Below are positions 4,596-64,000 of a DNA stretch of 64,000 nt, piece by piece (positions within the stretch are counted from its first letter, which is position 1; each line of letters begins with the position of its first letter). The position numbers and the translations under genes were made by a program. This stretch comes from Escherichia phage MRostami-2023b. Where the stretch lies: sequence record OQ031492; one strand, given 5' to 3'. Under the pieces are notes generated by a model. That model was not told where the DNA came from, searched no databases, and saw only the letters and a list, made by a program, of their open reading frames with translations.

Positions 4596-4931
4596 ATGGA
4601 ATTTCAAGAAGCATGGGGACTTGCAAAGGATGCAATAATCCCTTTAATCGGAGTCATCTGGTTCTTTTTCAAACAAAAAATGGATAAATTCGGCTCTGAT
4701 CTTGAGGAAATGGAGGAGAAAAGTCGAGAGCTAGAGAAGAAGTTGGTCTTTGTTGAATCAACTTATGCAACTAAAGCCGAACTTACCCAGATGCTAAATC
4801 AAATTAACTCTACATTAATGGCAAATAATAACACCCTTGAGCAAAAAATTGAAAAGATTATGGACCTCAAGAATGCGACTATCCAAATGATGCTAGATGA
4901 CATAGTTAAACGTACACAGAATAAGGGGTAA
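4596..4931 (+). CDS. Hypothetical protein with N-terminal TM segment and coiled coil
   Basis: 111 aa ORF, hydrophobic N-terminus. Confidence 0.4.
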   Translation: MEFQEAWGLAKDAIIPLIGVIWFFFKQKMDKFGSDLEEMEEKSRELEKKLVFVESTYATKAELTQMLNQINSTLMANNNTLEQKIEKIMDLKNATIQMMLDDIVKRTQNKG

Positions 4932-15362: not shown

Positions 15363-15410
15363 TCTTCTCCTANNNNNNNNNAGAAACTCCTTAAAAAGCA
15401 ATAGGTTAGA

Positions 15411-29350: not shown

Positions 29351-29544
29351 TACAAACCCTCCTTCAGATTATCAAGAGCTACAGTGGTTTCACAAAATTC
29401 TCCATAAGCTTTATGATGTTCCAGAAAAGCTTCGGGTCCACCCCAGTCATTATCTTGTGTATTCCAGCCATCAATAAAAGCATCTTCAATGATTGTGATC
29501 AGTTCTTGTCGAGTCAACTGGANNNNNNNNNNNNNNNNNNNGTA

Positions 29545-35839: not shown

Positions 35840-36488
35840 TTACAATTTCTCCTCTTTTAAGTTTCTCTAGTAAGTCGTTAGGGTTCTTAATATGACAGAA
35901 GTTAAATCCTAAGTCAACACATTTTCCATCATATTCTTCACTATCGCCTACGTGCAACACTTCGTGCCCTAACAGAGGGATCGGAGAATACGTGAGCGTG
36001 CGAGCAAAGAATCGCGGATCTGGTTTACAAAGTAAAGCTTCATCCGAGAAATGGGTGAACTCAAAACAATTCCAACTATCAAACTTACAAGCACGACGCA
36101 GGATATCCCCTGATATGAAGTTGGTATTGCTCTTAATACTCAAATCATAACGCCCCGAAAGATACAGCAAGTACATCGGTAGATCCACAGCTACATGAGG
36201 TGGAAACTTAAGGAACCATTGTTCACACTCGAAACGNNNNNNNNNNNNNNNNNNNNNNNNNNNNNNNNNNNNNNNNNNNNNNNNNNNNNNNNNNNNNNNN
36301 NNNNNNNNNNNNNNNNNNNNNNNNNNNNNNNNNNNNNNNNNNNNNNNNNNNNNNNNNNNNNNNNNNNNNNNNNNNNNNNNNNNNNNNNNNNNNNNNNNNN
36401 NNNNNNNNNNNNNNNNNNNNNNNNNNNNNNNNNNNTTTGCAGTGATCAGTGTGTTCCATACATCAAAAGAGATATGTTTAATAGTCAT
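35832..36488 (-). CDS. HAD-superfamily hydrolase-like protein (interior masked by N)
   Basis: N-terminal ISFDVWNTLI (motif I-like), later KPDP and GDS; 199 N inside. Confidence 0.4.
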   Translation of the reverse strand: MTIKHISFDVWNTLITAXXXXXXXXXXXXXXXXXXXXXXXXXXXXXXXXXXXXXXXXXXXXXXXXXXXXXXXXXXXXXXXXXXXRFECEQWFLKFPPHVAVDLPMYLLYLSGRYDLSIKSNTNFISGDILRRACKFDSWNCFEFTHFSDEALLCKPDPRFFARTLTYSPIPLLGHEVLHVGDSEEYDGKCVDLGFNFCHIKNPNDLLEKLKRGEIVNA

Positions 36489-45098: not shown

Positions 45099-45454
45099 TT
45101 TTCCTCCTTTTTGTATTCAATGAACATATCTGCATAGTAAGCTTTACGTTCTTCAAATTTAGCAGGGTTTACCACAATGAAAANNNNNNNNNNNNNNNNN
45201 NNNNNNNNNNNNNNNNNNNNNNNNNNNNNNNNNNNNNNNNNNNNNNNNNNNNNNNNNNNNNNNNNNNNNNNNNNNNNNNNNNNNNNNNNNNNNNNNNNNN
45301 NNNNNNNNNNNNNNNNNNNNNNNNNNNNNNNNNNNNNNNNNNNNNNNNNNNNNNNNNNNNNNNNNNNNNNNNNNNNNNNNNNNNNNNNNNNNNNNNNNNN
45401 NNNNNNNNNNNNNNNNNNNNNNNNNNNNNNNNNNNNNNNNNNNNCTTTGCTCAT
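45095..45454 (-). CDS. Hypothetical protein, mostly masked by N
   Basis: Only termini readable. Confidence 0.25.
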   Translation of the reverse strand: MSKXXXXXXXXXXXXXXXXXXXXXXXXXXXXXXXXXXXXXXXXXXXXXXXXXXXXXXXXXXXXXXXXXXXXXXXXXXXXXXXXXXXXXXXXFIVVNPAKFEERKAYYADMFIEYKKEEK

Positions 45455-47678: not shown

Positions 47679-47998
47679 AAAACCTCCTCCTTGTTGGCTG
47701 CTTCAATCATAGCGTTAAGAGTCTCCATACCACTTTCAACTGCTTGAGCAATCTCTTGGAACACAGTTTTCTTAAAGATGTATAAAGATCCTGCCTGTAA
47801 GCGTTGCACACAGCATAAGATGGTTTGGTGATCCATAACAAAATCACCATAAGCACAATCAATTTTCCCTGTGATTNNNNNNNNNNNNNNNNNNNNNNNN
47901 NNNNNNNNNNNNNNNNNNNNNNNNNNNNNNNNNNNNNNNNNNNNNNNNNNNNNNNNNNNNNNNNNNNNAATTGACACGCTAAACAGACTGTTTGACAT
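47675..47998 (-). CDS. Hypothetical protein (92 N inside)
   Basis: 107 codons incl. masked part. Confidence 0.3.
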   Translation of the reverse strand: MSNSLFSVSIXXXXXXXXXXXXXXXXXXXXXXXXXXXXXXXITGKIDCAYGDFVMDHQTILCCVQRLQAGSLYIFKKTVFQEIAQAVESGMETLNAMIEAANKEEVL

Positions 47999-48995: not shown

Positions 48996-49283
48996 ATGTA
49001 TTATTCACAAGACGAAGTAGCAAACATTAAACTGGCAGTTGGCGATCTTATTGTGTCACCTAACTACTATTGGGATAACACAGATTTGGTTGAAGTAGTA
49101 ACCTATGTTGGAGTTGAAGGTATTGTGCTCTACACACTAGGTGGAGGTGTTGTTGGGGAAATGGAACGTTATACGACAACGAAGAAACTGGTAAGCTCTT
49201 ATCACATGTTTTTACACCAAGGTTCGGAAGAGTATACAGCTTTCTTGTTGAAATTAGATGCAGATCGGGAGAAGGCACGATGA
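48996..49283 (+). CDS. Hypothetical protein
   Basis: 95 aa, RBS aaaggaga. Confidence 0.4.
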   Translation: MYYSQDEVANIKLAVGDLIVSPNYYWDNTDLVEVVTYVGVEGIVLYTLGGGVVGEMERYTTTKKLVSSYHMFLHQGSEEYTAFLLKLDADREKAR

Positions 49284-52274: not shown

Positions 52275-52282
52275 TAAAGATG

Positions 52283-53191
52283 NNNNNNNNNNNNNNNNNN
52301 NNNNNNNNNNNNNNNNNNNNNNNNNNNNNNNNNNNNNNNNNNNNNNNNNNNNNNNNNNNNNNNNNNNNNNNNNNNNNNNNNNNNNNNNNNNNNNNNNNNN
52401 NNNNNNNNNNNNNNNNNNNNNNNNNNNNNNNNNNNNNNNNNNNNNNNNNNNNNNNNNNNNNNNNNNNNNNNNNNNNNNNNNNNNNNNNNNNNNNNNNNNN
52501 NNNNNNNNNNNNNNNNNNNNNNNNNNNNNNNNNNNNNNNNNNNNNNNNNNNNNNNNNNNNNNNNNNNNNNNNNNNNNNNNNNNNNNNNNNNNNNNNNNNN
52601 NNNNNNNNNNNNNNNNNNNNNNNNNNNNNNNNNNNNNNNNNNNNNNNNNNNNNNNNNNNNNNNNNNNNNNNNNNNNNNNNNNNNNNNNNNNNNNNNNNNN
52701 NNNNNNNNNNNNNNNNNNNNNNNNNNNNNNNNNNNNNNNNNNNNNNNNNNNNNNNNNNNNNNNNNNNNNNNNNNNNNNNNNNNNNNNNNNNNNNNNNNNN
52801 NNNNNNNNNNNNNNNNNNNNNNNNNNNNNNNNNNNNNNNNNNNNNNNNNNNNNNNNNNNNNNNNNNNNNNNNNNNNNNNNNNNNNNNNNNNNNNNNNNNN
52901 NNNNNNNNNNNNNNNNNNNNNNNNNNNNNNNNNNNNNNNNNNNNNNNNNNNNNNNNNNNNNNNNNNNNNNNNNNNNNNNNNNNNNNNNNNNNNNNNNNNN
53001 NNNNNNNNNNNNNNNNNNNNNNNNNNNNNNNNNNNNNNNNNNNNNNNNNNNNNNNNNNNNNNNNNNNNNNNNNNNNNNNNNNNNNNNNNNNNNNNNNNNN
53101 NNNNNNNNNNNNNNNNNNNNNNNNNNNNNNNNNNNNNNNNNNNNNNNNNNNNNNNNNNNNNNNNNNNNNNNNNNNNNNNNNNNNNNNNNNN
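52283..53191. other. Masked sequence (909 N)
   Basis: N run; content unknowable. Confidence 0.9.
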
Positions 53192-53524
53192 AATCAACAG
53201 CAATGTTACATTAACTATGTCTATGATGAACAAGGTGTTCTCTGTGCCTTGAAATTTGGCATTACTAAAGATAGCGATAGGCGTATTAAAGAACAAAATA
53301 GCCATAATGTGTTAACTATGAAACAACACCAAGTGTGGCACTTCCCTACTGTTAAGCAGTGCAAAGATGCAGAGAGTCGTTGTAAGCGTATTCTTGATAC
53401 GGAAGCAGTGAGCAAATATGCTATGCCAGATGGCTACACAGAAACAGTAGAGTTATCTTGCATGGCATCAATACAAAACATTTATAAACTTTATGGTGGA
53501 ACATTACAGGAGGAAACATGTTAG
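53192..53524 (+). CDS. C-terminal part of a protein with T5orf172/GIY-YIG-like segment (5' part masked)
   Basis: YINYVYDEQGVLCALKFGITKDSDRRIKEQN; frame continuity across N unverifiable. Confidence 0.3.
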   Translation, partial: NQQQCYINYVYDEQGVLCALKFGITKDSDRRIKEQNSHNVLTMKQHQVWHFPTVKQCKDAESRCKRILDTEAVSKYAMPDGYTETVELSCMASIQNIYKLYGGTLQEETC

Positions 53525-53896: not shown

Positions 53897-54085
53897 ATGG
53901 CACGTTTAGCAGATCATGAAATCTTTAAACCTATTCTGAACCACTATGATGAACTTAAAGCAGTGTTGGATTGTTATAGAGAGGATGAAGAACTCTTGGA
54001 GACAAACCTTAAAGTAGTTCTGATGAAAGCCTATCAGCAAGGGCAACGTGAAATTTTGGAGAGTATGAAAAATGCGAATAACTGA
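53897..54085 (+). CDS. Hypothetical small protein
   Basis: Start at MARLADHE after aaggaga RBS. Confidence 0.35.
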   Translation: MARLADHEIFKPILNHYDELKAVLDCYREDEELLETNLKVVLMKAYQQGQREILESMKNANN

Positions 54086-54614
54086 TGATTATGTATTCTT
54101 CTTTTCACATAAAGATGTTTTTAGTAATTGGTATATTGCACCCTTTACAGAAACCGAACCAGGTTACAATCAGACATTTAATTGTGTCGAACAATACATG
54201 ATGTGGCGTAAAGCTTTGCTTTTTAATGATCACAACACTGCACAGGCTATTCTGACTCATAGTTTGATACGGAAAGATGAGAAGATCCAAGCTTATTACA
54301 AACGTATGGGTAGGGCAGTGTCGGATTTTGATAACAATGTATGGGAAGAGAACCGTGAGCGTATTGTTATGCGAGGTTTATGCTTGAAATATGTACAGAA
54401 TCCAGATTTGTATGCAGACTTACACCTTTACCAATACAAAACGTTTGTTGAAGCAAGCCCCTACGATAAGGTTTACGGAATTGGAATGGGGATGTATGAA
54501 CCAGGGGTGCTAAACCCTGCCACCTGGAAAGGGCAGAATCTTTTAGGTAAATATCATAATAAACTGATCGAAATACTTTTCCCAGACAGAATACCGCAAA
54601 GACGATATTTGTGA
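54072..54614 (+). CDS. NADAR-domain protein (YbiA-like)
   Basis: FFFSHKDVFSNWY…EQYMMWRKALLF…DKVYGIGMG…GQNLLGKYHNKL matches NADAR/DUF1768 landmarks. Confidence 0.65.
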   Translation: MRITDDYVFFFSHKDVFSNWYIAPFTETEPGYNQTFNCVEQYMMWRKALLFNDHNTAQAILTHSLIRKDEKIQAYYKRMGRAVSDFDNNVWEENRERIVMRGLCLKYVQNPDLYADLHLYQYKTFVEASPYDKVYGIGMGMYEPGVLNPATWKGQNLLGKYHNKLIEILFPDRIPQRRYL

Positions 54615-54857
54615 TATTTTAACTTTTTTCATTTTTAGAACAAAGGTGTCACTTTGTAGCACAGAAATAAGGCTCCTACAGCACCGTAGAGAGCCTGTTA
54701 TTTTGTCCTATACAAACCCTTATCTTTTTCAGTTTGCATCACTAGGATTCGATCTAAGTGGGTTCCTGAAGGTCTACTAATAAGATTAAAGGTTATCTCA
54801 AATTCCCATTACCTATTATCTCAAAAATCCCTCAAATTATTTAAACTTTTTAAGAAT

Positions 54858-54895
54858 TTACAAAAGTGAAAGTTGAAAACCAAAATTTAAAGTTT
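54858..54895. repeat. A-rich direct repeat copy 1 in non-coding control region
   Basis: tacaaaagtgaaagttgaaaaccaaaatttaaagttta; near-copies at 54998-55035 and partial at 54937-54966. Confidence 0.5.
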
Positions 54896-54997
54896 AGGAA
54901 AATTATCTTAAAATGTTAGATACAAAACAAAACTCAAAAGTCAAGGAAAATTTTAAAAATTTTGCGCGCCCACAGTATTTAAAGTTTTTTTGCTTTT

Positions 54998-55035
54998 ACA
55001 AAAATGAAAGTACAAAAGCAAAATTTAAAGTTTAC
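54998..55035. repeat. A-rich direct repeat copy 2
   Basis: tacaaaaatgaaagtacaaaagcaaaatttaaagttta. Confidence 0.5.
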
Positions 55036-55039
55036 AAAA

Positions 55040-55175
55040 ATTTTTATGCAGGTGAGAATGAGAAGAGTTCTCATATGGAAATGCAAATGATAATGATTCG
55101 CATTTAAGTTTATAAATGAGATTGATTCTTATTTAATAAGGTAAATGATAACCATTCTCATTTAGAGAATGACGC
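55040..55175. promoter_or_regulatory. Cluster of palindromic operator-like sites
   Basis: gagaatgagaagagttctcat; aaatgc-aaatgataatgatt-cgcattt (Fur-box-like GATAATGAT core); cattctcatttagagaatg. Confidence 0.4.
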
Positions 55176-55420
55176 GCAGGGGCGGTGTTTGTCTCGCGCT
55201 CCCGTGTCCCCTCGCCATGTAATAAGAATAACAGATCCAGCCAGGAAAGCAAGCGATTATTTTATCTTTACATTTCTTTACAAATATATAGCGCCCAGCC
55301 TACCGGCGATCAACCTTCCAACCAGCGCCCTGGTATGTTAGCCCCGCCTTTACGCCGTGGGGTGGCGCTTCCTCTTCTGTATGTAAAACAGTATAAGCCC
55401 TATCCCTGGGCTTGTCAAGA

Positions 55421-55687
55421 TTATTTTTTGTTTTCTTGCCAGGTCAGGACACCTAGCCAAAAATGAATATCACCTTTTCCCCAATGTGGTATATTGCTTT
55501 CNNNNNNNNNACTGCAAGCCCATAGATAACCATTTGCGAACGTATCAAAATGATCTATATCCTCGACCTTATAATCTGATAGGTTGAGAACGGTTTCAAC
55601 CTTTAAGCCCGTTGCGCTTGCTACCTGGTGCACCGTGCCGCCTTGCCAGCCCAATGAGTGCATAAGGTGTAATGTAGTATTTGTCAT
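55421..55687 (-). CDS. Hypothetical protein divergent from the early-gene array (8 N inside)
   Basis: 88 aa ORF; possible TTGCTA-17-TATCAT promoter upstream. Confidence 0.3.
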   Translation of the reverse strand: MTNTTLHLMHSLGWQGGTVHQVASATGLKVETVLNLSDYKVEDIDHFDTFANGYLWACSXXXESNIPHWGKGDIHFWLGVLTWQENKK

Positions 55688-55796: not shown

Positions 55797-55854
55797 TTGA
55801 CGTTCGCCAGGTGGCGGCATAATATTTACCACGTAGGGCGGCAATGGTGCCGCT
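55797..55854 (+). promoter_or_regulatory. Sigma70-type promoter (TTGACG-17-TAATAT) plus conserved leader hairpin
   Basis: -10 followed by ttaccacGTAGGGCGGCAatggTGCCGC. Confidence 0.6.
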
Positions 55855-55874
55855 CATTATTTGGAGTTAAAATC

Positions 55875-56072
55875 ATGGCAACATTGCACATTGTGGCGAA
55901 AGCTGGACAAATAAACGTGGTAGTAAACGGTTTTACTGAGTTCAGTCATCCCCAGGATGATCATGAAACGGTTTTATCTTTCATTGATTCACTGTTAGAA
56001 ATGGGAGTAATTACAGAAGACCAGCACGCTACAAAATGCAAACGCGTTAATCAAATTGCAGGGATAGAATAA
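55875..56072 (+). CDS. Small early-type protein
   Basis: 65 aa from ATG after ggagtt RBS. Confidence 0.4.
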   Translation: MATLHIVAKAGQINVVVNGFTEFSHPQDDHETVLSFIDSLLEMGVITEDQHATKCKRVNQIAGIE

Positions 56073-56078
56073 AAAGTA

Positions 56079-56137
56079 TTGACAACAAACAACAACCTGA
56101 TAAGATGTATCACATAGGGCGGGAAGTGGTTTCCCGC
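56079..56137 (+). promoter_or_regulatory. Promoter (TTGACA-16-TAAGAT) plus leader hairpin
   Basis: gtatcacATAGGGCGGGAAgtggtTTCCCGC. Confidence 0.55.
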
Positions 56138-56162
56138 TCGTAACAGAAGAGAGATTATCATC

Positions 56163-56435
56163 ATGGCATCATATAGCGCAACAATGATCGTAGCTGGCAC
56201 CACTGGTAAACCTATGTGCGGTGGCGGATCTTTCGCAAATATCAACATTGACGGGCGTTTATCCCTGGACGCAGCGATCACCGTGGCGCGGGAAACATTT
56301 AAGAAAGAATGTAAATTCAATAAACAAGATTATCTCGGTTTTGCTATTGAAAAAACCGCGCGCTTTGTTGATTATAAAAGCCCGAAAATGGTTGACACTA
56401 CATTAAAAGCGCAAGATGTAGCGTTTTTGCTTTAA
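56163..56435 (+). CDS. Small early-type protein
   Basis: 90 aa, RBS agaagagag. Confidence 0.4.
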   Translation: MASYSATMIVAGTTGKPMCGGGSFANINIDGRLSLDAAITVARETFKKECKFNKQDYLGFAIEKTARFVDYKSPKMVDTTLKAQDVAFLL

Positions 56436-56438
56436 GGC

Positions 56439-56494
56439 TTGACATTAACGACTAATTTGTTAATATGTTACATAAAGCGGGAATAGTTCCCGCT
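56439..56494 (+). promoter_or_regulatory. Promoter (TTGACA-16-TAATAT) plus leader hairpin
   Basis: AGCGGGAAtagTTCCCGCT after -10. Confidence 0.55.
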
Positions 56495-56511
56495 ATTTGT
56501 AAGGTGGTAGA

Positions 56512-56769
56512 ATGTTTTACATCAAATTAAAAGGTCACGTGATCGCGTTCAAAGATAACGCTTTTTACAGATTAGCAAAATATGCGTTAATACATCCCCA
56601 CTATGTTTATATAAGGGGGCGTGATGAAATAAATATCTTTGATCAAACAACATGCGAGAACATCGAGATCCGCAAGGTTGGCGTACGTGATTATCGTACA
56701 TCTTTCTACCCTTGCAAGGATTCAGCAAGTCTTTTCAAAGTATGCCAATTGTTGAAAAAAGGTGGTTAA
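56512..56769 (+). CDS. Small early-type protein
   Basis: 85 aa, RBS aaggtgg. Confidence 0.4.
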   Translation: MFYIKLKGHVIAFKDNAFYRLAKYALIHPHYVYIRGRDEINIFDQTTCENIEIRKVGVRDYRTSFYPCKDSASLFKVCQLLKKGG

Positions 56770-56770
56770 T

Positions 56771-57328
56771 ATGGGCCGCGAATATGTGATCCAGTCTTGG
56801 GTAAAACATGAAGCAGATGATCCGCGCATCATTCCCGATCATCTTATCGATGAATCCACGGGATATAGCGGTGAGCAAATAGGTAACAGATTAGCACGTA
56901 GTAACGGCAACGTAAAAGCACGTTATGTGCGCCCTGGCTGGCTGGCAAATGGTAACGCTGATTTATCCAGTGCGGAAGATGCGAGCGACGGCGCGAAAGA
57001 TAATCCTTTGTACAAAGTTGATCCGGCTTTTCGTGTCCTGGATGAATACCCCAGCAAGATAGCGGCGCTCGATCAGGCCCTGGAAAGTAAGCGCATCACC
57101 TGGACCGCTTACAACATGGCAAAAAACGTACTTGATGGTAAATTGATTCAAGCTGAAAGAAAATTAGCCAAAATTGCAGCTATAGCCCAGGAGGAAGACG
57201 AGGAGACAACGGAAGAGGAAGAGTACGAAGAGATCCCGCCGTTGTTGTGTGTTGATGCTTTTCCTGATTATCAGCCGACAGAGGAAGAAAAAAGGATCGC
57301 ACTAGAAAACTTTGAAAATAGTCTTTGA
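56771..57328 (+). CDS. Acidic hypothetical protein
   Basis: 185 aa from MGREYVIQ; Glu-rich C-terminal tract. Confidence 0.4.
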   Translation: MGREYVIQSWVKHEADDPRIIPDHLIDESTGYSGEQIGNRLARSNGNVKARYVRPGWLANGNADLSSAEDASDGAKDNPLYKVDPAFRVLDEYPSKIAALDQALESKRITWTAYNMAKNVLDGKLIQAERKLAKIAAIAQEEDEETTEEEEYEEIPPLLCVDAFPDYQPTEEEKRIALENFENSL

Positions 57329-57382
57329 CATATCGCCGCCACTGGCATAATATTTACCACGTAGGGCGGCAATGGTGCCGCT
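57325..57382 (+). promoter_or_regulatory. Promoter (TTGACA-17-TAATAT) plus leader hairpin
   Basis: Near-identical to 55797-55854 element. Confidence 0.55.
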
Positions 57383-57410
57383 CATAGTAAAATTATGCAA
57401 GAGGTTTGCA

Positions 57411-57506
57411 ATGATTAATAAAGAAAATAGCTTGACGGTTGGAACGATTAACGCTATCATTTTCGCCGTTCCATTTTGGGTTGTAGTAGCGGCTATTATT
57501 TTCTAA
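57411..57506 (+). CDS. Tiny hydrophobic peptide (31 aa)
   Basis: MINKENSLTVGTINAIIFAVPFWVVVAAIIF; own promoter-hairpin. Confidence 0.3.
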   Translation: MINKENSLTVGTINAIIFAVPFWVVVAAIIF

Positions 57507-57515
57507 AAAATATTC

Positions 57516-57576
57516 TTGACAACGTTTTTTAATCTGATAAGATGTATCACATAGGGCGGCGGAATACTTCCCCGCC
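57516..57576 (+). promoter_or_regulatory. Promoter (TTGACA-16-TAAGAT) plus leader hairpin
   Basis: gtatcacATAGGGCGGCGGAAtacTTCCCCGCC. Confidence 0.55.
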
Positions 57577-57597
57577 AAAACAAAAAAGGGTAACACA

Positions 57598-57960
57598 ATG
57601 AGCAAGCAAATCAGTACTATCATGTTTAATCTGGTATCTTTCCGCGATGATATGAAAAATTTACCACGTGAAACGGTTGATATTCATGTTTCAGCTTATC
57701 GCGCCCTTATTGACATGTTACCGCTAAAACGTGATCAACATGCCGCTAATATGATGCTTAATGCTATGCTTAAAAAGATGATTCAAACTGATCTCACCCT
57801 GGCATATGAGTATCAAGGGCGCTTATATGCAACTTACAACAAAACGGTACCTGGTTTGGGAAGTACCGAAGAGTTGCACGGCTTAAACCTGGATCAAAAC
57901 ACTTGGGATAGTATGCGCCGCGTTATGGTATGGGCCGAAAGCGGTAAAATTTACGAATAA
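57598..57960 (+). CDS. Small early-type protein
   Basis: 120 aa. Confidence 0.4.
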   Translation: MSKQISTIMFNLVSFRDDMKNLPRETVDIHVSAYRALIDMLPLKRDQHAANMMLNAMLKKMIQTDLTLAYEYQGRLYATYNKTVPGLGSTEELHGLNLDQNTWDSMRRVMVWAESGKIYE

Positions 57961-57966
57961 AAACGG

Positions 57967-58023
57967 TTGACACTGTTTAAACTTCTGGTATAGTTTATCA
58001 CGTAGGGCGGCAATGGTGCCGCC
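57967..58023 (+). promoter_or_regulatory. Promoter (TTGACA-16-TATAGT) plus leader hairpin
   Basis: ttatcacGTAGGGCGGCAatggTGCCGCC. Confidence 0.55.
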
Positions 58024-58043
58024 AACAATAAAAGGTTAACACC

Positions 58044-58409
58044 ATGGCTATTAATATCAATGTTTCCGCTTATGCTACCCTGGCTAACACGGCTAAAATC
58101 GAATTATCCAGCATTGAGGCGGTGCATATTAGCGCCCGTCGCTGGTTTCAAAAGTCTTATGGTAATACTTATTTCTCTTTGATGGTTGACGTTGAGATCG
58201 GCGGTAAATTGATCGAAGTGGTTAACGTTCCGTTTCAATATGGCTATGGTGATCATTTTGATACCGTCGCCCTGGAAGAATTTAGCAAGGTTATCAACCT
58301 TGAGGGCAAGGAATTTTCACGCGGCGCGTATCTTTCCCGTTTTTGCCGTGACAATGGGATCACTGTATACAGTCATGCAAGCGATGTTAAACGTAAAAAA
58401 GATCTATAA
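58044..58409 (+). CDS. Small early-type protein
   Basis: 121 aa. Confidence 0.4.
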   Translation: MAININVSAYATLANTAKIELSSIEAVHISARRWFQKSYGNTYFSLMVDVEIGGKLIEVVNVPFQYGYGDHFDTVALEEFSKVINLEGKEFSRGAYLSRFCRDNGITVYSHASDVKRKKDL

Positions 58410-58415
58410 AAAGCA

Positions 58416-58475
58416 TTGACAGCACGAATAAAAAGCGTAAAATGTTTTATATCGAGAGCGGGAACACTTCCCGCC
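58416..58475 (+). promoter_or_regulatory. Promoter (TTGACA-16-TAAAAT) plus leader hairpin
   Basis: GCGGGAAcacTTCCCGC after -10. Confidence 0.5.
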
Positions 58476-58498
58476 TCACTGAAAAAGAGAGAAAAATC

Positions 58499-58738
58499 AT
58501 GGCTAAATCTAAAATGTACAACGGTCACAAAAACAAAACTCATTGGAATGTAAGCCTTTGGATTAATAACGATGAATCGTTATACCGGTTGGCCCAAGAT
58601 TTTATTAACGCTAATGCTAATCGTAATGATGCGGCGCGGGATATGATGCTTTTTCTGGAACAAACTGGACAAGATAAAACGCCAGACGGTTTCAAATATA
58701 GCACTACTGCGATCCGTGCCGCGATGGTTGGAATGTAA
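58499..58738 (+). CDS. Small early-type protein
   Basis: 79 aa from MAKSKMY. Confidence 0.4.
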   Translation: MAKSKMYNGHKNKTHWNVSLWINNDESLYRLAQDFINANANRNDAARDMMLFLEQTGQDKTPDGFKYSTTAIRAAMVGM

Positions 58739-58746
58739 TAAAAACA

Positions 58747-58805
58747 GTTGACAACGTTTAAAATTAGTGTAAGATGTATCACATAGGGCGGGAAGTGGTT
58801 TCCCG
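58747..58805 (+). promoter_or_regulatory. Promoter (TTGACA-16-TAAGAT) plus leader hairpin
   Basis: Near-identical to 56079-56137 element. Confidence 0.55.
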
Positions 58806-58828
58806 CCAAAACAGAGAGATTAAAGATT

Positions 58829-59056
58829 ATGGCTATCAATATTGTTCGCGTATCCGGCACCGTTGGCACTTCACAGGTTATTGCAGTCGTCACNNNNNNN
58901 NNNNNNNNNNNNNNNNNNNNNNCCTTGAATAAGTGGGCTATTGCTAATTTTGGGGAATATGCAAGCGTCGAGTACATCGAATCCTACCAGGTGCCAACCA
59001 TCAGCCTAACCGATCTCAACGTTGATCGCCTGTTATGCCTGGATGAATTAATCTGA
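58829..59056 (+). CDS. Small early-type protein (39 N inside)
   Basis: 75 codons incl. masked part. Confidence 0.3.
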   Translation: MAINIVRVSGTVGTSQVIAVVXXXXXXXXXXXLNKWAIANFGEYASVEYIESYQVPTISLTDLNVDRLLCLDELI

Positions 59057-59065
59057 AAAAGATTG

Positions 59066-59122
59066 TTGACACGGGAAAGAAAAAGAGTAAACTATATTAC
59101 GTAGGGCGGCAATGGTGCCGCT
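59066..59122 (+). promoter_or_regulatory. Promoter (TTGACA-16-TAAACT) plus leader hairpin
   Basis: atattacGTAGGGCGGCAatggTGCCGC. Confidence 0.5.
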
Positions 59123-59143
59123 CACAACAGAAGAGAGATTATC

Positions 59144-59339
59144 ATGNNNNNNNNNNNNNNNNNNNNNNNNNNNNNNNNNNNNNNNNNNNNNNNNNNNNNN
59201 NNNNNNNNNNNNNNNNNNNNNNNNNNNNNNNNNNNNNNNNNNNNNNNNNNNNNNNNNNNNNNNNNNNNNNNNNNNNNNNNNNNNNNNNNNNNNNNNNNNN
59301 NNNNNNNNNNNNNNNNNNNNNNNNNTTATAAAATAAAGC
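59144..59339 (+). CDS. Small ORF, start only; remainder masked
   Basis: ATG after agaagagagattatc RBS; 179 N follow. Confidence 0.2.
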
Positions 59340-59401
59340 TTGACAATAATTTGTTATCTAGTAAAGTGTACGACATAGGGCGGGGCAATAAGGCAACGCC
59401 C
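59340..59401 (+). promoter_or_regulatory. Promoter (TTGACA-16-TAAAGT) plus leader hairpin variant
   Basis: gtacgacATAGGGCGGGG…CGCCC. Confidence 0.45.
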
Positions 59402-59419
59402 ACTAATGAGGGTAAAATC

Positions 59420-59524
59420 ATGTTAGAGAAAATTTTCACGGTTGCAGTGGTTGGCCTGGCGTTATCGGTTGGAGTGGTTGCAACTATGGCTAACATGATC
59501 CTATCTTCCCACGGTATCGGCTAA
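59420..59524 (+). CDS. Tiny hydrophobic peptide (34 aa)
   Basis: MLEKIFTVAVVGLALSVGVVATMANMILSSHGIG. Confidence 0.3.
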   Translation: MLEKIFTVAVVGLALSVGVVATMANMILSSHGIG

Positions 59525-59534
59525 GGTGAAACAA

Positions 59535-59750
59535 ATGATCACGAATAAGACAGGTAAAACGGAATTTTTACGCGGCTTGCAAGTTGGTAAACCTGAGATC
59601 TGGCATTGTACTAAATCCGCACACAATGAAATGAAAGACTTTACCGCTAGTTTACAACGTGTTAAAATATCTATTACGCAGAAAAAAGCCTTGATAGTTG
59701 CAGAAAACGAGATCCCGCAAACCATTATTATTGTCGAGCGTACAGCATGA
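59535..59750 (+). CDS. Small early-type protein
   Basis: Start at ATG after aaggtg. Confidence 0.35.
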   Translation: MITNKTGKTEFLRGLQVGKPEIWHCTKSAHNEMKDFTASLQRVKISITQKKALIVAENEIPQTIIIVERTA

Positions 59751-60133
59751 AAACAGAAATCATTAACGAAATCATCAACGGCTATAAAGAAGCCTTTATT
59801 TTTGCTGAATCAGCAAGGGATCATGAAGGTAATTTTATTGATAACTTAGACGATTATGATTTTTCTCCTAGCGCGGACAAACGGATCGCCCAGGATGTAA
59901 CAGCCTTTATTAATGCTAATCTTGCCGCTATCTCTGAGGCAATGAGCGACGGCGCAACAGCCAACCAGATCGGCAATGATTTACATTTTACCCGTAACGG
60001 TCACGGCGTAGGCTTTTGGGATCGCCTTGAAATCTACACCACTAACACGGCGAACCGCCTAACCAATGCAGCTAAGTTTATGCCGAACGTGTCGGCTTAC
60101 ATTGGTGAAGATAATTTGATTTATATTGAATAA
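59747..60133 (+). CDS. Small early-type protein
   Basis: 128 aa, ATGA overlap. Confidence 0.4.
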   Translation: MKTEIINEIINGYKEAFIFAESARDHEGNFIDNLDDYDFSPSADKRIAQDVTAFINANLAAISEAMSDGATANQIGNDLHFTRNGHGVGFWDRLEIYTTNTANRLTNAAKFMPNVSAYIGEDNLIYIE

Positions 60134-60139
60134 AAAGTA

Positions 60140-60252
60140 TTGACACAGATCGCCAGTGTGATAATATTTACCACGTAGGGCGGCAATGGTGCCGCTGACA
60201 CAGATCGCCAGTGTGCTTATATTTAATGCGTAGGGCGGCAATGGTGCCGCCG
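60140..60252 (+). repeat. Tandem duplication of promoter plus leader hairpin unit (two ~56-bp copies)
   Basis: ttgacacagatcgccagtgtg…gtagggcggcaatggtgccgc followed by ctgacacagatcgccagtgtg…gtagggcggcaatggtgccgcc. Confidence 0.6.
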
Positions 60253-60269
60253 ATAATGAGGAAAGTAAA

Positions 60270-60569
60270 ATGGAAACTATCGCTATTGTTACCGTAGAAA
60301 AACTGGTTGTTGGTGATGTATTCGCGTTAATGGTGCCTAACAGCAGCAAGCTGGGCGCTTATGAAGTAATGGATCATAAAAATGAATCATTTGGCGACGG
60401 TTGCACAATGGCGGTAAAATCTTTAAAGGATGGAATCATCCGCCAGGCTAACTGGCACAAAGGGAATCAAGTCGGATTAATATCAGCTAATTTCTTGCCA
60501 GAAGAGCAAACGTTAGACCAACTATCAGGCGGTAAGACGTTAGCCGAACTACTGGAAACAGCGATCTAA
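60270..60569 (+). CDS. Small early-type protein
   Basis: 99 aa. Confidence 0.4.
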   Translation: METIAIVTVEKLVVGDVFALMVPNSSKLGAYEVMDHKNESFGDGCTMAVKSLKDGIIRQANWHKGNQVGLISANFLPEEQTLDQLSGGKTLAELLETAI

Positions 60570-60577
60570 TCAACAAA

Positions 60578-60593
60578 GGGGCGGCAACGCCCC
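60578..60593 (+). other. GNRA-loop hairpin in intergenic leader
   Basis: GGGGCG-gcaa-CGCCCC; no U-tract. Confidence 0.4.
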
Positions 60594-60613
60594 ACGTCAG
60601 AAAGGAAAAGATT

Positions 60614-60850
60614 ATGAGTATTGCAACAGTATTAAACGCCGTTAAAACCGCTGAATCATCCGGCTTACATGTTGAGCTTATAGATCAACCAGGTGGCGAT
60701 CTCCTTGTCCAGGTTTACCCGCCGAAAGTAGGGGATGATCATTATTGGTGCTATTCTGATACGTTCGAACAAGTAGACACGAAAGCGATCACGGCTTTTA
60801 TTTTAAAAGCTATTGAAGAAAATAACTTTCATTATAACATCAATCAATAA
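60614..60850 (+). CDS. Small early-type protein
   Basis: 78 aa. Confidence 0.4.
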   Translation: MSIATVLNAVKTAESSGLHVELIDQPGGDLLVQVYPPKVGDDHYWCYSDTFEQVDTKAITAFILKAIEENNFHYNINQ

Positions 60851-60859
60851 ACCATAAGC

Positions 60860-60875
60860 GGGGCGGTAACGCCCC
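60860..60875 (+). other. GNRA-loop hairpin in intergenic leader
   Basis: GGGGCG-gtaa-CGCCCC. Confidence 0.4.
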
Positions 60876-60905
60876 ATTAAACGCAATAGGAAGAGGCTAG
60901 AAAGC

Positions 60906-61190
60906 ATGAAAAAGATGATCGCAGTAGTTGCCCTGGTTGTTGGTATTAACGCGCCTGTACTGGCTAATGAGTTGCCAGAATCCATCACGTTAACCGATAT
61001 TAACGCAGTGAATCGGATCGGTGTTAATTATCGCCTATGCCTTGCCGCTAAAACTTTCCAGGACGGCACAACAGAGTACTACGGATTCGAGGGTATCCGC
61101 TGCGGTGAGCTTTCACGCGACCTTAAGGAAGATCCAGACCTTGAGGCCATACCGATGACCGTAAACGGTAAAGCCCACGTAAACCGCTAA
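60906..61190 (+). CDS. Small secreted protein with signal peptide
   Basis: MKKMIAVVALVVGINAPVLA…. Confidence 0.4.
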   Translation: MKKMIAVVALVVGINAPVLANELPESITLTDINAVNRIGVNYRLCLAAKTFQDGTTEYYGFEGIRCGELSRDLKEDPDLEAIPMTVNGKAHVNR

Positions 61191-61192
61191 CC

Positions 61193-61327
61193 ATGAGAAA
61201 GGTAATCATCACAATGGGGATCGTAGTAGCAACGCTGGCGCTTATCCCTTTCATGGTTGAACATGTGCTGATCAATGTTGTCCTGGTAGTCAGTGACCTA
61301 TTGGAAACGGTTGGCAACTGGTTTTAA
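61193..61327 (+). CDS. Small hydrophobic membrane peptide (not in ORF table)
   Basis: 44 aa MRKVIITMGIVVATLALIPFMVEHVLINVV…. Confidence 0.3.
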   Translation: MRKVIITMGIVVATLALIPFMVEHVLINVVLVVSDLLETVGNWF

Positions 61328-61335
61328 GATAATAA

Positions 61336-61362
61336 ATAGGGCTTGCAATAGTCCTATTTTTT
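61336..61362 (+). terminator. Rho-independent terminator
   Basis: atagggc…gtcctat stem followed by tttttt. Confidence 0.5.
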
Positions 61363-61501
61363 GTTATACTTATTGAACGGGCGGCACCTGGGAGCAGGGG
61401 AAGATAATCACCAGAAGACCCCGCTATATATTGATAACTAACGCCTATCAAACAACAAAACATCAAAGGAACAAACTATCAAATCTTTACAATTCTACCT
61501 A

Positions 61502-61551
61502 TTGACACCGGATCACGCTTACATTATTATTTATCACGTAGGGCGAGAATG
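61502..61551 (+). promoter_or_regulatory. Promoter (TTGACA-17-TATTAT) plus start of leader, truncated by N run
   Basis: ttatcacGTAGGGCGAG then masked. Confidence 0.45.
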
Positions 61552-61825
61552 NNNNNNNNNNNNNNNNNNNNNNNNNNNNNNNNNNNNNNNNNNNNNNNNN
61601 NNNNNNNNNNNNNNNNNNNNNNNNNNNNNNNNNNNNNNNNNNNNNNNNNNNNNNNNNNNNNNNNNNNNNNNNNNNNNNNNNNNNNNNNNNNNNNNNNNNN
61701 NNNNNNNNNNNNNNNNNNNNNNNNNNNNNNNNNNNNNNNNNNNNNNNNNNNNNNNNNNNNNNNNNNNNNNNNNNNNNNNNNNNNNNNNNNNNNNNNNNNN
61801 NNNNNNNNNNNNNNNNNNNNNNNNN
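61552..61825. other. Masked sequence (274 N) bounded by near-identical promoter-leader copies
   Basis: Both flanks read attattatttatcacgtagggcgag. Confidence 0.8.
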
Positions 61826-61874
61826 TCATGTTAAATTATTATTTATCACGTAGGGCGAGCAATACAGCAAGCCC
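61826..61874 (+). promoter_or_regulatory. Second copy of -10 plus leader element (-35 masked)
   Basis: tattat-ttatcac-gtagggcgagcaatacagcaagccc. Confidence 0.4.
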
Positions 61875-61891
61875 ACAAAGAGGAAAAGAAG

Positions 61892-62260
61892 ATGAGCAAA
61901 TCAGCAATTAAAGCAGTTGAAAAAGCGCAAGAAGTGATCGCAACGTCCACCACTGGCGCAAAGGTTAATCTCGTTGGTTATCTGACAGATGAAACTATCC
62001 GTAAAAATTGGCGTAATGCTGATTTACTGGCTTGCTTATTGATTAATAGTGTCGCTAATGCTTTCCAGTGTGAAACAGCCGAGAGCCTGGAGGAAAACTT
62101 GTTTGATAATATGGATCAAGCCATTGAAACCTATATACAATCAAACCTGGATAGCTGGAACAGTAAAACATGGCCCGACAATTTACGCGATACAACTGAT
62201 CAACTGATCCGCCTTGCTGTGATGGTTGAACGCGATAACGTTTACAACAGCACAAAGTAA
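61892..62260 (+). CDS. Small early-type protein
   Basis: 122 aa. Confidence 0.4.
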   Translation: MSKSAIKAVEKAQEVIATSTTGAKVNLVGYLTDETIRKNWRNADLLACLLINSVANAFQCETAESLEENLFDNMDQAIETYIQSNLDSWNSKTWPDNLRDTTDQLIRLAVMVERDNVYNSTK

Positions 62261-62269
62261 GATTATACA

Positions 62270-62290
62270 AGGGCGCACCAAGCGCCCTTT
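62270..62290 (+). terminator. Hairpin terminator (weak U-tract), same stem as 62828-62861
   Basis: agggcgc-accaa-gcgccct. Confidence 0.4.
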
Positions 62291-62325
62291 AACGTAAAGA
62301 AATGTAAATAATGCGCTATCCCCTA

Positions 62326-62354
62326 TTGACAGGGGATCGGCGTTATATTATATT
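62326..62354 (+). promoter_or_regulatory. Sigma70-type promoter (TTGACA-17-TATATT) with -35 embedded in palindrome
   Basis: atcccctaTTGACAggggat inverted repeat around -35. Confidence 0.45.
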
Positions 62355-62399
62355 TAACTCACTGGCAGCAAACAACGAAACGAAACAAAGGACAATACC

Positions 62400-62819
62400 A
62401 TGAACATTAAATCAAATAATCCAGCTTACTCCTTCGATAACGCTTTTTGTCACGGTAGCGCCGCCAAAGGCTTCGAAATCGATGGTAAATTGGTTATCGT
62501 GAACGTTGACGGGGAAGAGGTTGCAGTATATCCGGTAAACGATGTTAAAAGCCGTTTACAATGCCGCATGGATGTTACCGCGTATCAGCTTGATCCGATC
62601 CGTGTAGTTGCCCTGGTCCTGGAAGAAGAGATCAAAGCAATGCATCATAGTAACAAGTTTATTGGTGACGCGCAGGACAATATGAAAGTATGCCGCAGTA
62701 AAGTTAATGAAGCCTTGAAAGAATGCGGTTTTAAGGATCTGATGATTAAACGTGATGAAAAATTCCGCTTTCGTAATGACCTGGCGAACCGGATCTACTC
62801 AATATATGAAGCGTTATAA
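62400..62819 (+). CDS. Small early-type protein
   Basis: 139 aa. Confidence 0.4.
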   Translation: MNIKSNNPAYSFDNAFCHGSAAKGFEIDGKLVIVNVDGEEVAVYPVNDVKSRLQCRMDVTAYQLDPIRVVALVLEEEIKAMHHSNKFIGDAQDNMKVCRSKVNEALKECGFKDLMIKRDEKFRFRNDLANRIYSIYEAL

Positions 62820-62879: not shown

Positions 62880-63440
62880 GCTTTCGCCTATGAAAAACCG
62901 ACACAGAACAAAACTGAATAGATCGCGGTATCGAGCTAATCAACCATTAAACGAATAACCATACCTCCCAGGGTAACAGGTTGTTAGAGAGCCATTTAGA
63001 GCGGTTAAAATCGATCAACAACCAACAACAAACCATCAAAAACACCCTTTTACCTCCTTTCTAGTGCAATGATAACCATTATCATCTATCCATGTTTATC
63101 TATGCAATATAAGTGCATAACTATAATGTTGATAATAGTTCGCAACAACTAACTAACCAACAACCTAAAACAATAAGCAAACTAATCATAATCAAAGGAA
63201 TAATAGCAAGATGATTGATAACGACAAACAATCAAACCATGATGAATACTAAGCAAGATAACGATAACACGACAAAACAACCAACTAACGAACAATAACA
63301 AACGAAACCATTAAAATAATAACTATTGCCATAATAGTGACTGAATGAAATCATTACAAAACGAATCATTCCCAGGATCATCATTAGCACGCTATGCCGG
63401 ACACATAGCGAGCTAATAATAAGCCAACTACACCCCAACA
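62880..63440. other. ORF-free A/C-skewed low-complexity tract
   Basis: Plus strand almost devoid of G runs; repeated aacaa/ccaacaa/ataacga units; no credible ORF. Confidence 0.5.
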
Positions 63441-64000
63441 ATCATAACCATCGGTGACGGTTATTTCTTGTTATTGCGTAGCTTGCAATAATTGCAAGCG
63501 TAATTACGCTTACACTTATTGCGCTGGCTTATTATTAGCATTATATGTAATTACCAAGATCATAACATTAGCGCAATAACAATAATCATTGTGATAATTA
63601 CATAAGGAAATAATTAGCATGGCAATAATTATGGGGGCAATGGGAGGATGATTATCATCATTCCGATACATTGCACACTATGCACATAATAGAATAAAAG
63701 TCAATAATTTTGGGGGCGAAATGTTACCGCCACAGGCGGGAATGTTGAGCATCTTCTCTTAAACGTAAATAAAATCAGAAAATTCTTGATTTATTCTAGT
63801 TTTTATGTTAATAAACGTTTAAATAATAATCATTCTCATATAAATAATAGTCTGCTTGTCATGAGTGGGATTAGTTGACAGTGTTCCGTCATATGATGAA
63901 GTTGCCAAACCATTGATAAATAAGTGTTTGTGTGATTTATAATCAAGTGGCCCACCTTGTCGCTATGTTGGCATGAGCCTTGCATAAGTCATTGAATACG

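Follow-up and report, generated by a model that had tools for sequence, protein, structure and literature searches.

A phased array of Fur-box-like palindromes abuts a conserved structured RNA gene in the genome of an Escherichia phage

In the genome of Escherichia phage MRostami-2023b (sequence record OQ031492), a non-coding spacer at 54615–55180 contains a phased array of four palindromes that match the binding site of the host iron regulator Fur. Positions refer to the stretch of 64,000 nucleotides that was analysed, which is called "the window" in the following. The array directly follows the predicted 3′ end of a gene for a structured non-coding RNA (ncRNA), which is encoded on the minus strand and had not been annotated. 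The anatomy of the locus, its conservation, the identity of the boxes, and the RNA gene including its orientation could be read from the sequence itself. The results support the view that the spacer is a conserved, non-coding boundary, rich in cis elements, between a block of replication and nucleotide-metabolism genes and the early-gene array of the phage. As to its function, it is tentatively proposed, with a confidence that falls a little short of even, that an array coated with Fe-Fur would be a barrier that abuts the U-poor 3′ hairpin of the RNA and shields the neighbouring AT-rich repeats.

Four palindromes in regular phase match the Fur box

The following palindromic elements were found in the spacer:

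55056–55076, 55085–55105, 55114–55134, and 55143–55163, no strand assigned: four Fur-box-like palindromes of 21 bp with a period of 29 bp
55154–55172, no strand assigned: overlapping palindrome with the sequence CATTCTC-ATTTA-GAGAATG

A preliminary description of the spacer had mentioned several palindromes, including one with the core GATAATGAT that resembled iron-regulator boxes, and arms with the sequences GAGAATGA / TCATTCTC. All of these elements were present: the core is located at 55089–55097, the arms are located at 55154–55172, and the palindromes were revealed to be four copies of 21 bp in 29-bp phase plus a half-site. The consensus of the array is rAATGA[G/T]AATsATT[C/A]TCATTy. The outer half-site GAGAATGA (55165–55172) also supplies the UCAUUCUC tail that follows the 3′ hairpin of the ncRNA. 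When up to three mismatches were allowed, the sequence AAATGAGAATNATTCTCATTT had four matches in the window compared to an expectation of 0.02, and three of them are in the array.

The established Fur consensus is GATAATGATAATCATTATC, and its 7-1-7 form is TGATAAT-n-ATTATCA. The corresponding form of the phage box is TGAGAAT-s-ATTCTCA, which differs by one symmetrical change; the fourth position of the heptamer prefers G over T in the phage boxes. The four boxes match the classical consensus at 13–15 of 19 positions, and the sequence AATGA[G/T]AATCATT matches the core of the consensus at 12 of 13 positions.

A weight matrix was constructed from 47 distinct phage boxes only, and it was scanned over host DNA, i.e., 30 kb plus 50 kb of the E. 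coli K-12 genome. In the region from 603 to 633 kb the seven top positions were all located in the intergenic regions fepB-entC, fepD-entS, and fepA-fes, which together make up 726 of 30,001 bp (2.4%), and five of these seven matches scored far above the rest. In the region from 145 to 195 kb the best position was TTATAATAATCATTCTCGTTT, 55 nt upstream of fhuA. The promoter regions of fepB-entC, fepD-entS, fepA-fes, and fhuA are textbook examples of Fur regulation. The resemblance to iron-regulator boxes is thus real, as a matrix derived from phage boxes retrieves the Fur operators of the host, and the phage boxes score on this matrix as high as the best host operators. The second-best match in the region from 145 to 195 kb was AATTGAGAATCATTCTGAATT in the map-rpsB intergenic region (L256, 44580–44600), where we know of no Fur site. 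A synthetic double box was also compared with all complete E. coli genomes using BLAST, which yielded no matches, a result that says little given the shortness of the query.

The palindromic core is common to the phage boxes and to the E. coli Fur boxes of fhuA, fepA-fes, fepDGC-entS, and fepB-entC, and some of the phage boxes differ very little from the fhuA operator ATAATAATCATTCTCGTTT. Fur sites of E. coli are often clustered, like the boxes of the phage. In contrast to the E. coli operators, the phage boxes do not overlap a conserved promoter; the nearest one is 230–360 bp away from the array and is directed at it. The regular 29-bp phase, the location in a spacer that is predicted to be free of transcripts, and the occurrence in a virulent phage are further differences. 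Taken together, the palindromes are Fur boxes by sequence, and we infer that they would be bound by Fur.

Besides the array, the matrix identified only two strong boxes in the window, at 63067 and 63821. These extra boxes (63067–63087 and 63821–63841) are located in terminal non-coding DNA, beside or inside the direct terminal repeat as judged from the homology with phage BME3. Boxes are thus found at either border of the early block.

The array adjoins the predicted 3′ end of a conserved RNA gene

The minus strand next to the array encodes the following elements of the ncRNA gene:

55165–55383, minus strand: unannotated gene of a structured RNA of about 215 nt, with a putative start at about 55383 and a putative 3′ end at about 55165
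55353–55356/55364–55367 and 55342–55345/55359–55362, plus-strand coordinates: two pseudoknot stems of the 5′ domain
55321–55325/55330–55334, plus-strand coordinates: hairpin
55300–55317, plus-strand coordinates: invariant core AAGGUnnAUCGCCGGUAG, followed by an AU-rich linker
about 55171–55219: GC-rich 3′ hairpin with the conserved loop GAGACAAACACC (given in RNA sense)
55390–55418, minus strand: sigma-70 promoter with the −35 element TTGACA at 55418–55413, a spacer of 17 nt, and the −10 element TATACT at 55395–55390

The two stems of the 5′ domain are in our reading an H-type pseudoknot. The GC-rich stretch at 55165–55420 was found to be conserved in 233 phage records, and contigs from IMG/VR and from metagenomes as well as distant Aeromonas phages likewise contain the RNA element. 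The promoter matches the consensus at 11 of 12 positions. Of 37 dereplicated lineages, 36 have kept a promoter that matches at no fewer than 9 of 12 positions and whose distance from the invariant core AAGGUnnAUCGCCGGUAG is fixed. The spacer between the two promoter elements doubles as the terminator hairpin of an upstream open reading frame (ORF) of 88 amino acids.

Three helices of the RNA covary, with a score of 0.241 compared to 0.072 ± 0.015 for shuffled controls (none of 500 shuffles reached the score) and 0.011–0.085 for slid controls. The hairpin loops are GNRA or UUCG tetraloops, depending on the lineage, solely in the minus-strand reading, and the stem that closes the 3′ hairpin has many G·U pairs, on the minus strand only. 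A plus-strand RNA had been considered first and was rejected based on the tetraloops, the G·U pairs, and the promoter. A protein-coding gene on the plus strand, annotated as phAPEC8_00257 in phage phAPEC8, was also rejected, because of indels between lineages, the minus-strand promoter, the covariation, and the G·U pairs, and this and similar "hypothetical protein" calls are probably spurious. The comparison of sequences thus established the existence of a conserved minus-strand RNA gene as well as its orientation.

The RNA is absent from the phage annotations that were inspected. Scans with Rfam, for which both the gathering and permissive thresholds were used, and scans for tRNAs and tmRNAs did not reveal anything relevant. 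Folding of the single sequence was not significant (z = −0.75 and −0.40 on the two strands), and a long complementarity of the RNA was not found within the window. In 185,579 bacterial and archaeal species genomes there was one genuine instance of the element, on a phage-derived contig, and the idea of a host homologue or host target of the RNA was therefore rejected. A contig of 4 kb in a metagenome-assembled genome labelled "Proteobacteria" is a fragment of a Phapecoctavirus. Literature searches for transcriptomes and small RNAs of these phages yielded nothing usable.

The 3′ hairpin of the ncRNA is not followed by a U tract. In all box-bearing lineages the hairpin is followed by UCAUUCU or UAUUCU, and the first box is located 8–10 nt further on. 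The distance from the last box to the invariant core of the RNA is fixed at 144–158 nt in most of these lineages. The RNA homologues of Aeromonas phages have no boxes nearby, and their hairpin is followed by the U-rich tail AAUUGUUUG; in our reading this hairpin and its tail are an intrinsic terminator.

The boxes are shared by unrelated phage families

A sensitive DNA search with the spacer matched the orthologous spacer of the Stephanstirmvirinae. Via the palindromes alone, matches were obtained with the spacers of Vequintavirinae and of Klebsiella, Serratia, Erwinia, and Pectobacterium phages. T5-like Demerecviridae were also matched, and the longest stretch of 100% identity had 31 nt. In the T5-like phage saus111K strong boxes were found at 9151 and at 9508–9667, while the first 40 kb elsewhere contained weak copies only. 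These boxes belong to Repeat Region 3, which is non-coding and close to where the left terminal repeat has its inner end, and they adjoin DnaA boxes, a LexA-type box, and TGTCGGATTCGCACA repeats, of which six copies were detected. At about 9101–9171 of saus111K, the perfect 21-bp box AAATGAGAATCATTCTCATTT directly follows a GC-rich hairpin. This hairpin closes an unannotated ORF of about 70 codons on the plus strand of the record, and the junction of hairpin, AAUUCUC, and box is as at the 3′ end of the ncRNA in the window.

Repeat Region 3 is the candidate "injection stop signal" of T5 and its relatives; it holds the direct repeats DRC1-4 and the palindromes palE-palJ, for which a binding protein was not named (Davison, bioRxiv 10.1101/866236). 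From the order of the elements, and not from T5's own coordinates, we infer that DRC and palE-palJ correspond to the boxes. In the searchable literature a paper that links these repeats to Fur was not found.

The likeness of the two regions extends beyond the boxes. In T5 Repeat Region 3, the same 21-bp boxes are part of an extended non-coding region where a terminal early-gene block has its inner edge, the array is followed by lineage-specific direct repeats as in the window, and the proximal box of T5-like phages comes directly after a GC-rich hairpin, again as in the window. In contrast, the T5 region is part of a terminal repeat of about 10 kb, while that of a genus related to the phage studied here has 342 bp. 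The T5 region also has paired DnaA boxes and a LexA-type box, which are both absent from the spacer, T5 encodes A1 and A2, and T5-like phages are devoid of the ncRNA. When 15 T5-like terminal-repeat proteins, including A1 and A2, were compared with the window using tblastn, there was no real match in the 64 kb of the genome of about 150 kb that it covers. The identical boxes in unrelated families and the lack of homologues of T5 pre-early proteins in the window favour the view that the common ligand is a host protein and not a phage protein shared by these families.

Several relatives do not have Fur-like boxes. At the equivalent position they contain repeated GGAAAAATTTTTCC palindromes (L023, L096, L121, L125, L126, and L142), which are located 100–170 nt upstream of the anchor sequence CTACCGGCGAT. 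This suggests that a different DNA-binding protein may be used in these phages.

A putative Fur roadblock behind the ncRNA gene

The mechanism that is tentatively proposed would start with the cooperative binding of host Fe(II)-Fur dimers to the four boxes and the half-site, which would coat about 120 bp. The coat would begin 8–10 nt past the GC-rich, U-poor hairpin of the strongly promoted minus-strand ncRNA. RNA polymerase would stall at this coat, and termination would be assisted by the roadblock. As a consequence, both convergent polymerase streams may be kept out of the AT-rich repeat module. Protein roadblocks in termination, by lac repressor or by regulators of the CodY/CcpA type, likewise have a high-affinity operator a few nt downstream of a hairpin that is not followed by a proper U tract. 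In contrast to these known roadblocks, the role of the phage array is a purely putative one, and to our knowledge a Fur array that serves as a roadblock has not been described.

Several points weigh against this mechanism. One box would be enough for a roadblock, and four of them need another reason. The main array of T5-like phages does not have an adjacent RNA gene, and therefore the function that is common to the families cannot be the termination of the ncRNA. A role in termination also does not explain the boxes near the genome end, i.e., those at 63067 and 63821 and in or beside the terminal repeat of BME3. The commonest hexamer of the boxes is GAGAAT and not the GATAAT of the consensus, although GAGAAT is shared by the fhuA operator. 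Lastly, the relatives with GGAAAAATTTTTCC palindromes show that Fur as such is dispensable at this position, and that the position matters more than Fur.

The AT-rich repeat module and a possible replication origin

On the other side of the array the spacer contains a second element:

54833–55042, plus strand: A-rich direct-repeat module, composed of R1 (54833–54904), a degenerate middle unit (54905–54970), and R2 (54971–55042)

The repeat analysis confirmed this module as well as the palindrome array, and the A-rich imperfect direct repeats that had been noticed before were found to comprise about 2.5 units of about 70 bp. R1 and R2 are 82% identical over 72 nt, and the degenerate middle unit has an identity of 74% over 54921–54954. 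Relatives, i.e., Justusliebigvirus and Klebsiella-phage lineages, have three good units with unchanged distances. The repeat core is the 11-mer ATTTAAASTTT. The window has four exact copies of it, which are all located in the module and on one strand (54839, 54885, 54977, and 55023, with a spacing of 46/92/46), and a copy with one mismatch is found on the same strand outside the module at 54616. The region 54831–55050 has 78% A+T, and no other 220 bp in the unmasked window are as AT-rich.

In Vequintavirinae three GATC-rich direct repeats, GGGTCTCGATCG...TTTTC...ATCGTATT, replace the A-rich repeats (L005, 2740–2940; L007, 2740–2930); the number and the position of the repeats are kept, the sequence is not. 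As the module sequence is lineage-specific, the module is presumably the binding site of a phage protein. Curved DNA was rejected as an explanation of the A-rich repeats, because a periodicity of 10–11 bp is absent. A function of the repeats as promoters was rejected as well, because conserved −35 and −10 elements were not found on either strand when the sequences of relatives were read by eye.

The preliminary description had called the layout iteron-like and had considered an origin of replication. The same-strand repeats in the most AT-rich DNA of the window agree with this idea, but DnaA boxes and a turn of the GC skew do not accompany them. In an origin, the AT-rich repeats would be the unwinding element and the initiator site, the palindromes would be auxiliary or iteron-like, and the ncRNA promoter would activate or prime replication. 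The spacer has four to six short repeats in the same orientation, which are lineage-specific in sequence and conserved in position, the conserved strong promoter fires towards them, and the spacer appears to be otherwise untranscribed. The gene of an AAA+ ATPase with weak similarity to clamp loaders and DnaC is located 2.3 kb upstream. In lambda ori four palindromes adjoin an AT-rich stretch, and the same is true for the spacer. Repeated sites by AT-rich DNA, an inward strong promoter, and a nearby putative replication ATPase are features that it has in common with lambda ori, T4 oriF/oriG, and ColE1 RNA II.

Several results do not fit an origin. The DnaA-box motif TTWTNCACA has six matches in the window and none in the spacer, DnaA boxes occur only sporadically in the spacers of relatives, and LexA boxes were not found at the spacer. 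The cumulative GC skew, which had been suggested as a check, has no inflection at the spacer; its extremes at about 13 and 49 kb track the gene orientation, and the skew is positive on both sides of the spacer, which is a weak criterion for phages. Unlike the iterons of known origins, which have 17–22 bp and are in helical phase, the 11-mers are spaced by 46/92 nt. The palindromes match a host repressor site that is common to unrelated phages and not a phage-specific initiator site. In addition, the conserved fold of the RNA and the hairpin with a U-rich tail in Aeromonas phages fit a stand-alone RNA better than a primer. The T5 origins have been mapped near the genome centre, away from the box-bearing region (Davison, bioRxiv 10.1101/866236). 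An origin at the spacer is considered to be rather unlikely, but it is still a serious alternative. At 49001–49009 a DnaA-box match, TTATTCACA, was observed at a divergent strand switch and at the minimum of the cumulative GC skew (about 48–49.5 kb), and this region is an alternative candidate for an origin.

The spacer is the inner border of the early-gene block

The 2 kb around 54615–55180 share 94–97% identity with numerous genomes of Phapecoctavirus, which are E. coli myophages that resemble phAPEC8, and 68 records cover at least 80% of this region. Phapecoctavirus belongs to the Stephanstirmvirinae and has a genome of about 150 kb. The annotation of the spacer consists of a terminator only in phAPEC8 and of an unexplained "repeat_region" in phage anhysbys. 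Two further features flank the elements described above:

54670–54705, plus strand: intrinsic terminator of the upstream operon, with the stem AGGCTCCTAC / GTAGAGAGCCT followed by the T-run GTTATTTTG
55421–55687, minus strand: ORF of 88 amino acids with unknown function (phrog_19316), co-oriented with the ncRNA and containing a masked run of 9 nt at 55502–55510

The last gene of the upstream operon encodes a NADAR-domain protein (54072–54614, plus strand; Pfam, E = 8e-36), and the spacer begins after its stop codon. The site homologous to the terminator is an ARNold terminator in the phAPEC8 annotation. As this terminator opposes the conserved minus-strand promoter, the layout is convergent, and the spacer is, as judged from the predicted terminator and promoter, a non-transcribed gap between two convergent transcription units. 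The longest ORF within 54615–55180 has 64 codons (54913–55107) and traverses the repeats, and the longest spacer ORFs of four related genera differ in position and strand. The earlier statement that about 560 bp are without a credible ORF was therefore verified.

The early-gene array is located 3′ of the spacer at 55797–62819. Each of the small early genes has its own consensus host sigma-70 promoter and a 5′ hairpin, and these promoters are 0.6–7 kb away from the spacer. They have the form TTGACA-N17-TAnnnT and are followed by the conserved 5′ hairpin AGGGCGGCAATGGTGCCGCTCA (55797–62819); copies of this hairpin were also observed at 4828–4847, 5467–5486, 6356–6375, and 7372–7391 of L001, and the phAPEC8 record labels them "PHIRE promoters". 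The last early gene is followed by 1.2 kb of non-coding DNA, which holds the two further boxes. By homology with the end of BME3, the genome terminus was extrapolated to about 64.1–64.3 kb, just beyond the window. The array would thus be about 9 kb away from the genome end, and in BME3 the distance is about 11.9 kb, or 8% of the genome. The direct terminal repeat of BME3 has 342 bp, and terminal repeats of Stephanstirmvirinae are short. With the terminus placed in this way, the spacer is the predicted inner border of a terminal early-gene block of about 9 kb. A genome terminus or packaging site at the spacer itself was rejected, because the terminal repeat of the related genus maps elsewhere and homology puts the end at about 64.1–64.3 kb.

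The preliminary description had placed the spacer at a switch between a plus-strand block and the early genes. The spacer indeed adjoins the early-gene array, but both flanking blocks are on the plus strand, and only a short minus-strand unit, composed of the ncRNA and the 88-codon ORF, is located between them. The suggestion of a master regulatory region could not be upheld, because a conserved promoter does not overlap the boxes or the repeats, the spacer is located between convergent ends, and the early genes have promoters of their own. The spacer also does not have the character of an ordinary 3′ untranslated region.

Several observations concern the sequence records. Runs of N are present at 15373–15381, 16266–16986, 29523–29541, 36237–36435, 45184–45444, 47877–47968, 52283–53191, 55502–55510, 58894–58922, 59147–59325, and 61552–61825, and they cause apparent dips of GC in the composition profile. 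The run at 52283–53191 covers most of an endonuclease-like ORF (52280–53524). Records of "Campylobacter", "Acinetobacter", and "Pseudomonas" phages are about 95% identical to these coliphages, and their host labels look doubtful. In the GenBank record of BME3 about 0.8–1.3 kb of the start are repeated at the end (145871–147371), including two copies of the 342-bp terminal repeat, and the deposited ends thus seem to be concatenated and not of unit length.

Discussion

Other roles of the array have to be weighed against a roadblock. The boxes could be a Fur decoy or an iron sensor, and their genome position would then be incidental. Clusters of boxes on hundreds of replicating genomes would titrate Fur or report the iron status of the host, and Fur titration would de-repress host iron uptake for the iron-dependent enzymes of the phage. 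Multicopy Fur boxes are known to de-repress the regulon, which is the basis of the classical Fur titration assay. The phage boxes score like the best host operators on a matrix derived from phages, there are at least six strong boxes in the 64 kb, and by homology with BME3 more are expected in or beside the terminal repeat. However, the position of the array is strongly conserved, i.e., at a fixed distance to the RNA core, abutting the hairpin, and at the border of the early block, and some relatives do not have boxes at all. We regard a decoy or a sensor as quite improbable.

By analogy to the injection stop of T5, the array might be a pause signal for DNA entry and mark the point at which the leading 9 kb or so with the early genes halt until early functions have acted. 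We know of no report of two-step entry in these myophages, which argues against a pause. The terminal repeat has 342 bp and not about 10 kb, the window does not encode A1 or A2 homologues, and DnaA or LexA boxes do not accompany the array. The pause is in line with the same boxes in the T5-like Repeat Region 3 (saus111K, 9151 and 9508–9667), with the distance of the array to the extrapolated genome end of about 9 kb (about 11.9 kb in BME3), and with lineage-specific direct repeats on the inner side of the array in both phage groups. The shear point of the first-step-transfer DNA of T5 was placed in Repeat Region 3 (Davison, bioRxiv 10.1101/866236). In sum, such a pause has a very modest probability.

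A broader version of this analogy is equally speculative and has a similarly small chance of being right. The Fur array may be the core of a border element that is common to T5-like siphophages and rV5/phAPEC8-like myophages, and Fur would pause or gate the entry or the expression of the rest of the genome. To this end Fur would bind the genome as it comes in, at the inner edge of the early block that enters first, and the inward ncRNA promoter could be a restart motor. If true, the border element would be a molecular candidate for the 60-year-old "injection stop signal" of T5, and it would imply that a second phage group, unrelated to the first, also delivers its genome in stages.

A promoter-operator region, at which Fur or a phage repressor on the palindromes would switch a promoter for the early genes or an antisense transcript, is highly improbable: the weak plus-strand match TTTACA-17-GAGAAT over the first box (55031–55059, 9 of 12 positions) is not conserved in Justusliebigvirus or KP2025, its transcript would run antisense through the ncRNA and the 88-codon gene before it reached the early genes, all of which have consensus promoters of their own, and the spacer, located between convergent units, is predicted to be free of transcripts, which makes this role unlikely.

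The Fur boxes known so far are operators at the promoters of bacterial iron genes and of some prophage cargo genes. What is new is that Fur-type boxes occur as phased arrays without a promoter, at a landmark that is conserved in several families of virulent phages of enterobacteria. The analysis also exposed a widespread structured phage RNA, which has no entry in Rfam and which several genome records wrongly annotate as a protein gene. The repeats of the T5 region have been catalogued for decades with their binding protein unnamed, and the same boxes are present there. The results bear on the two-step injection of T5, on the partition of early and later DNA in large lytic phages, and on how phages may read or manipulate the iron status of their host.

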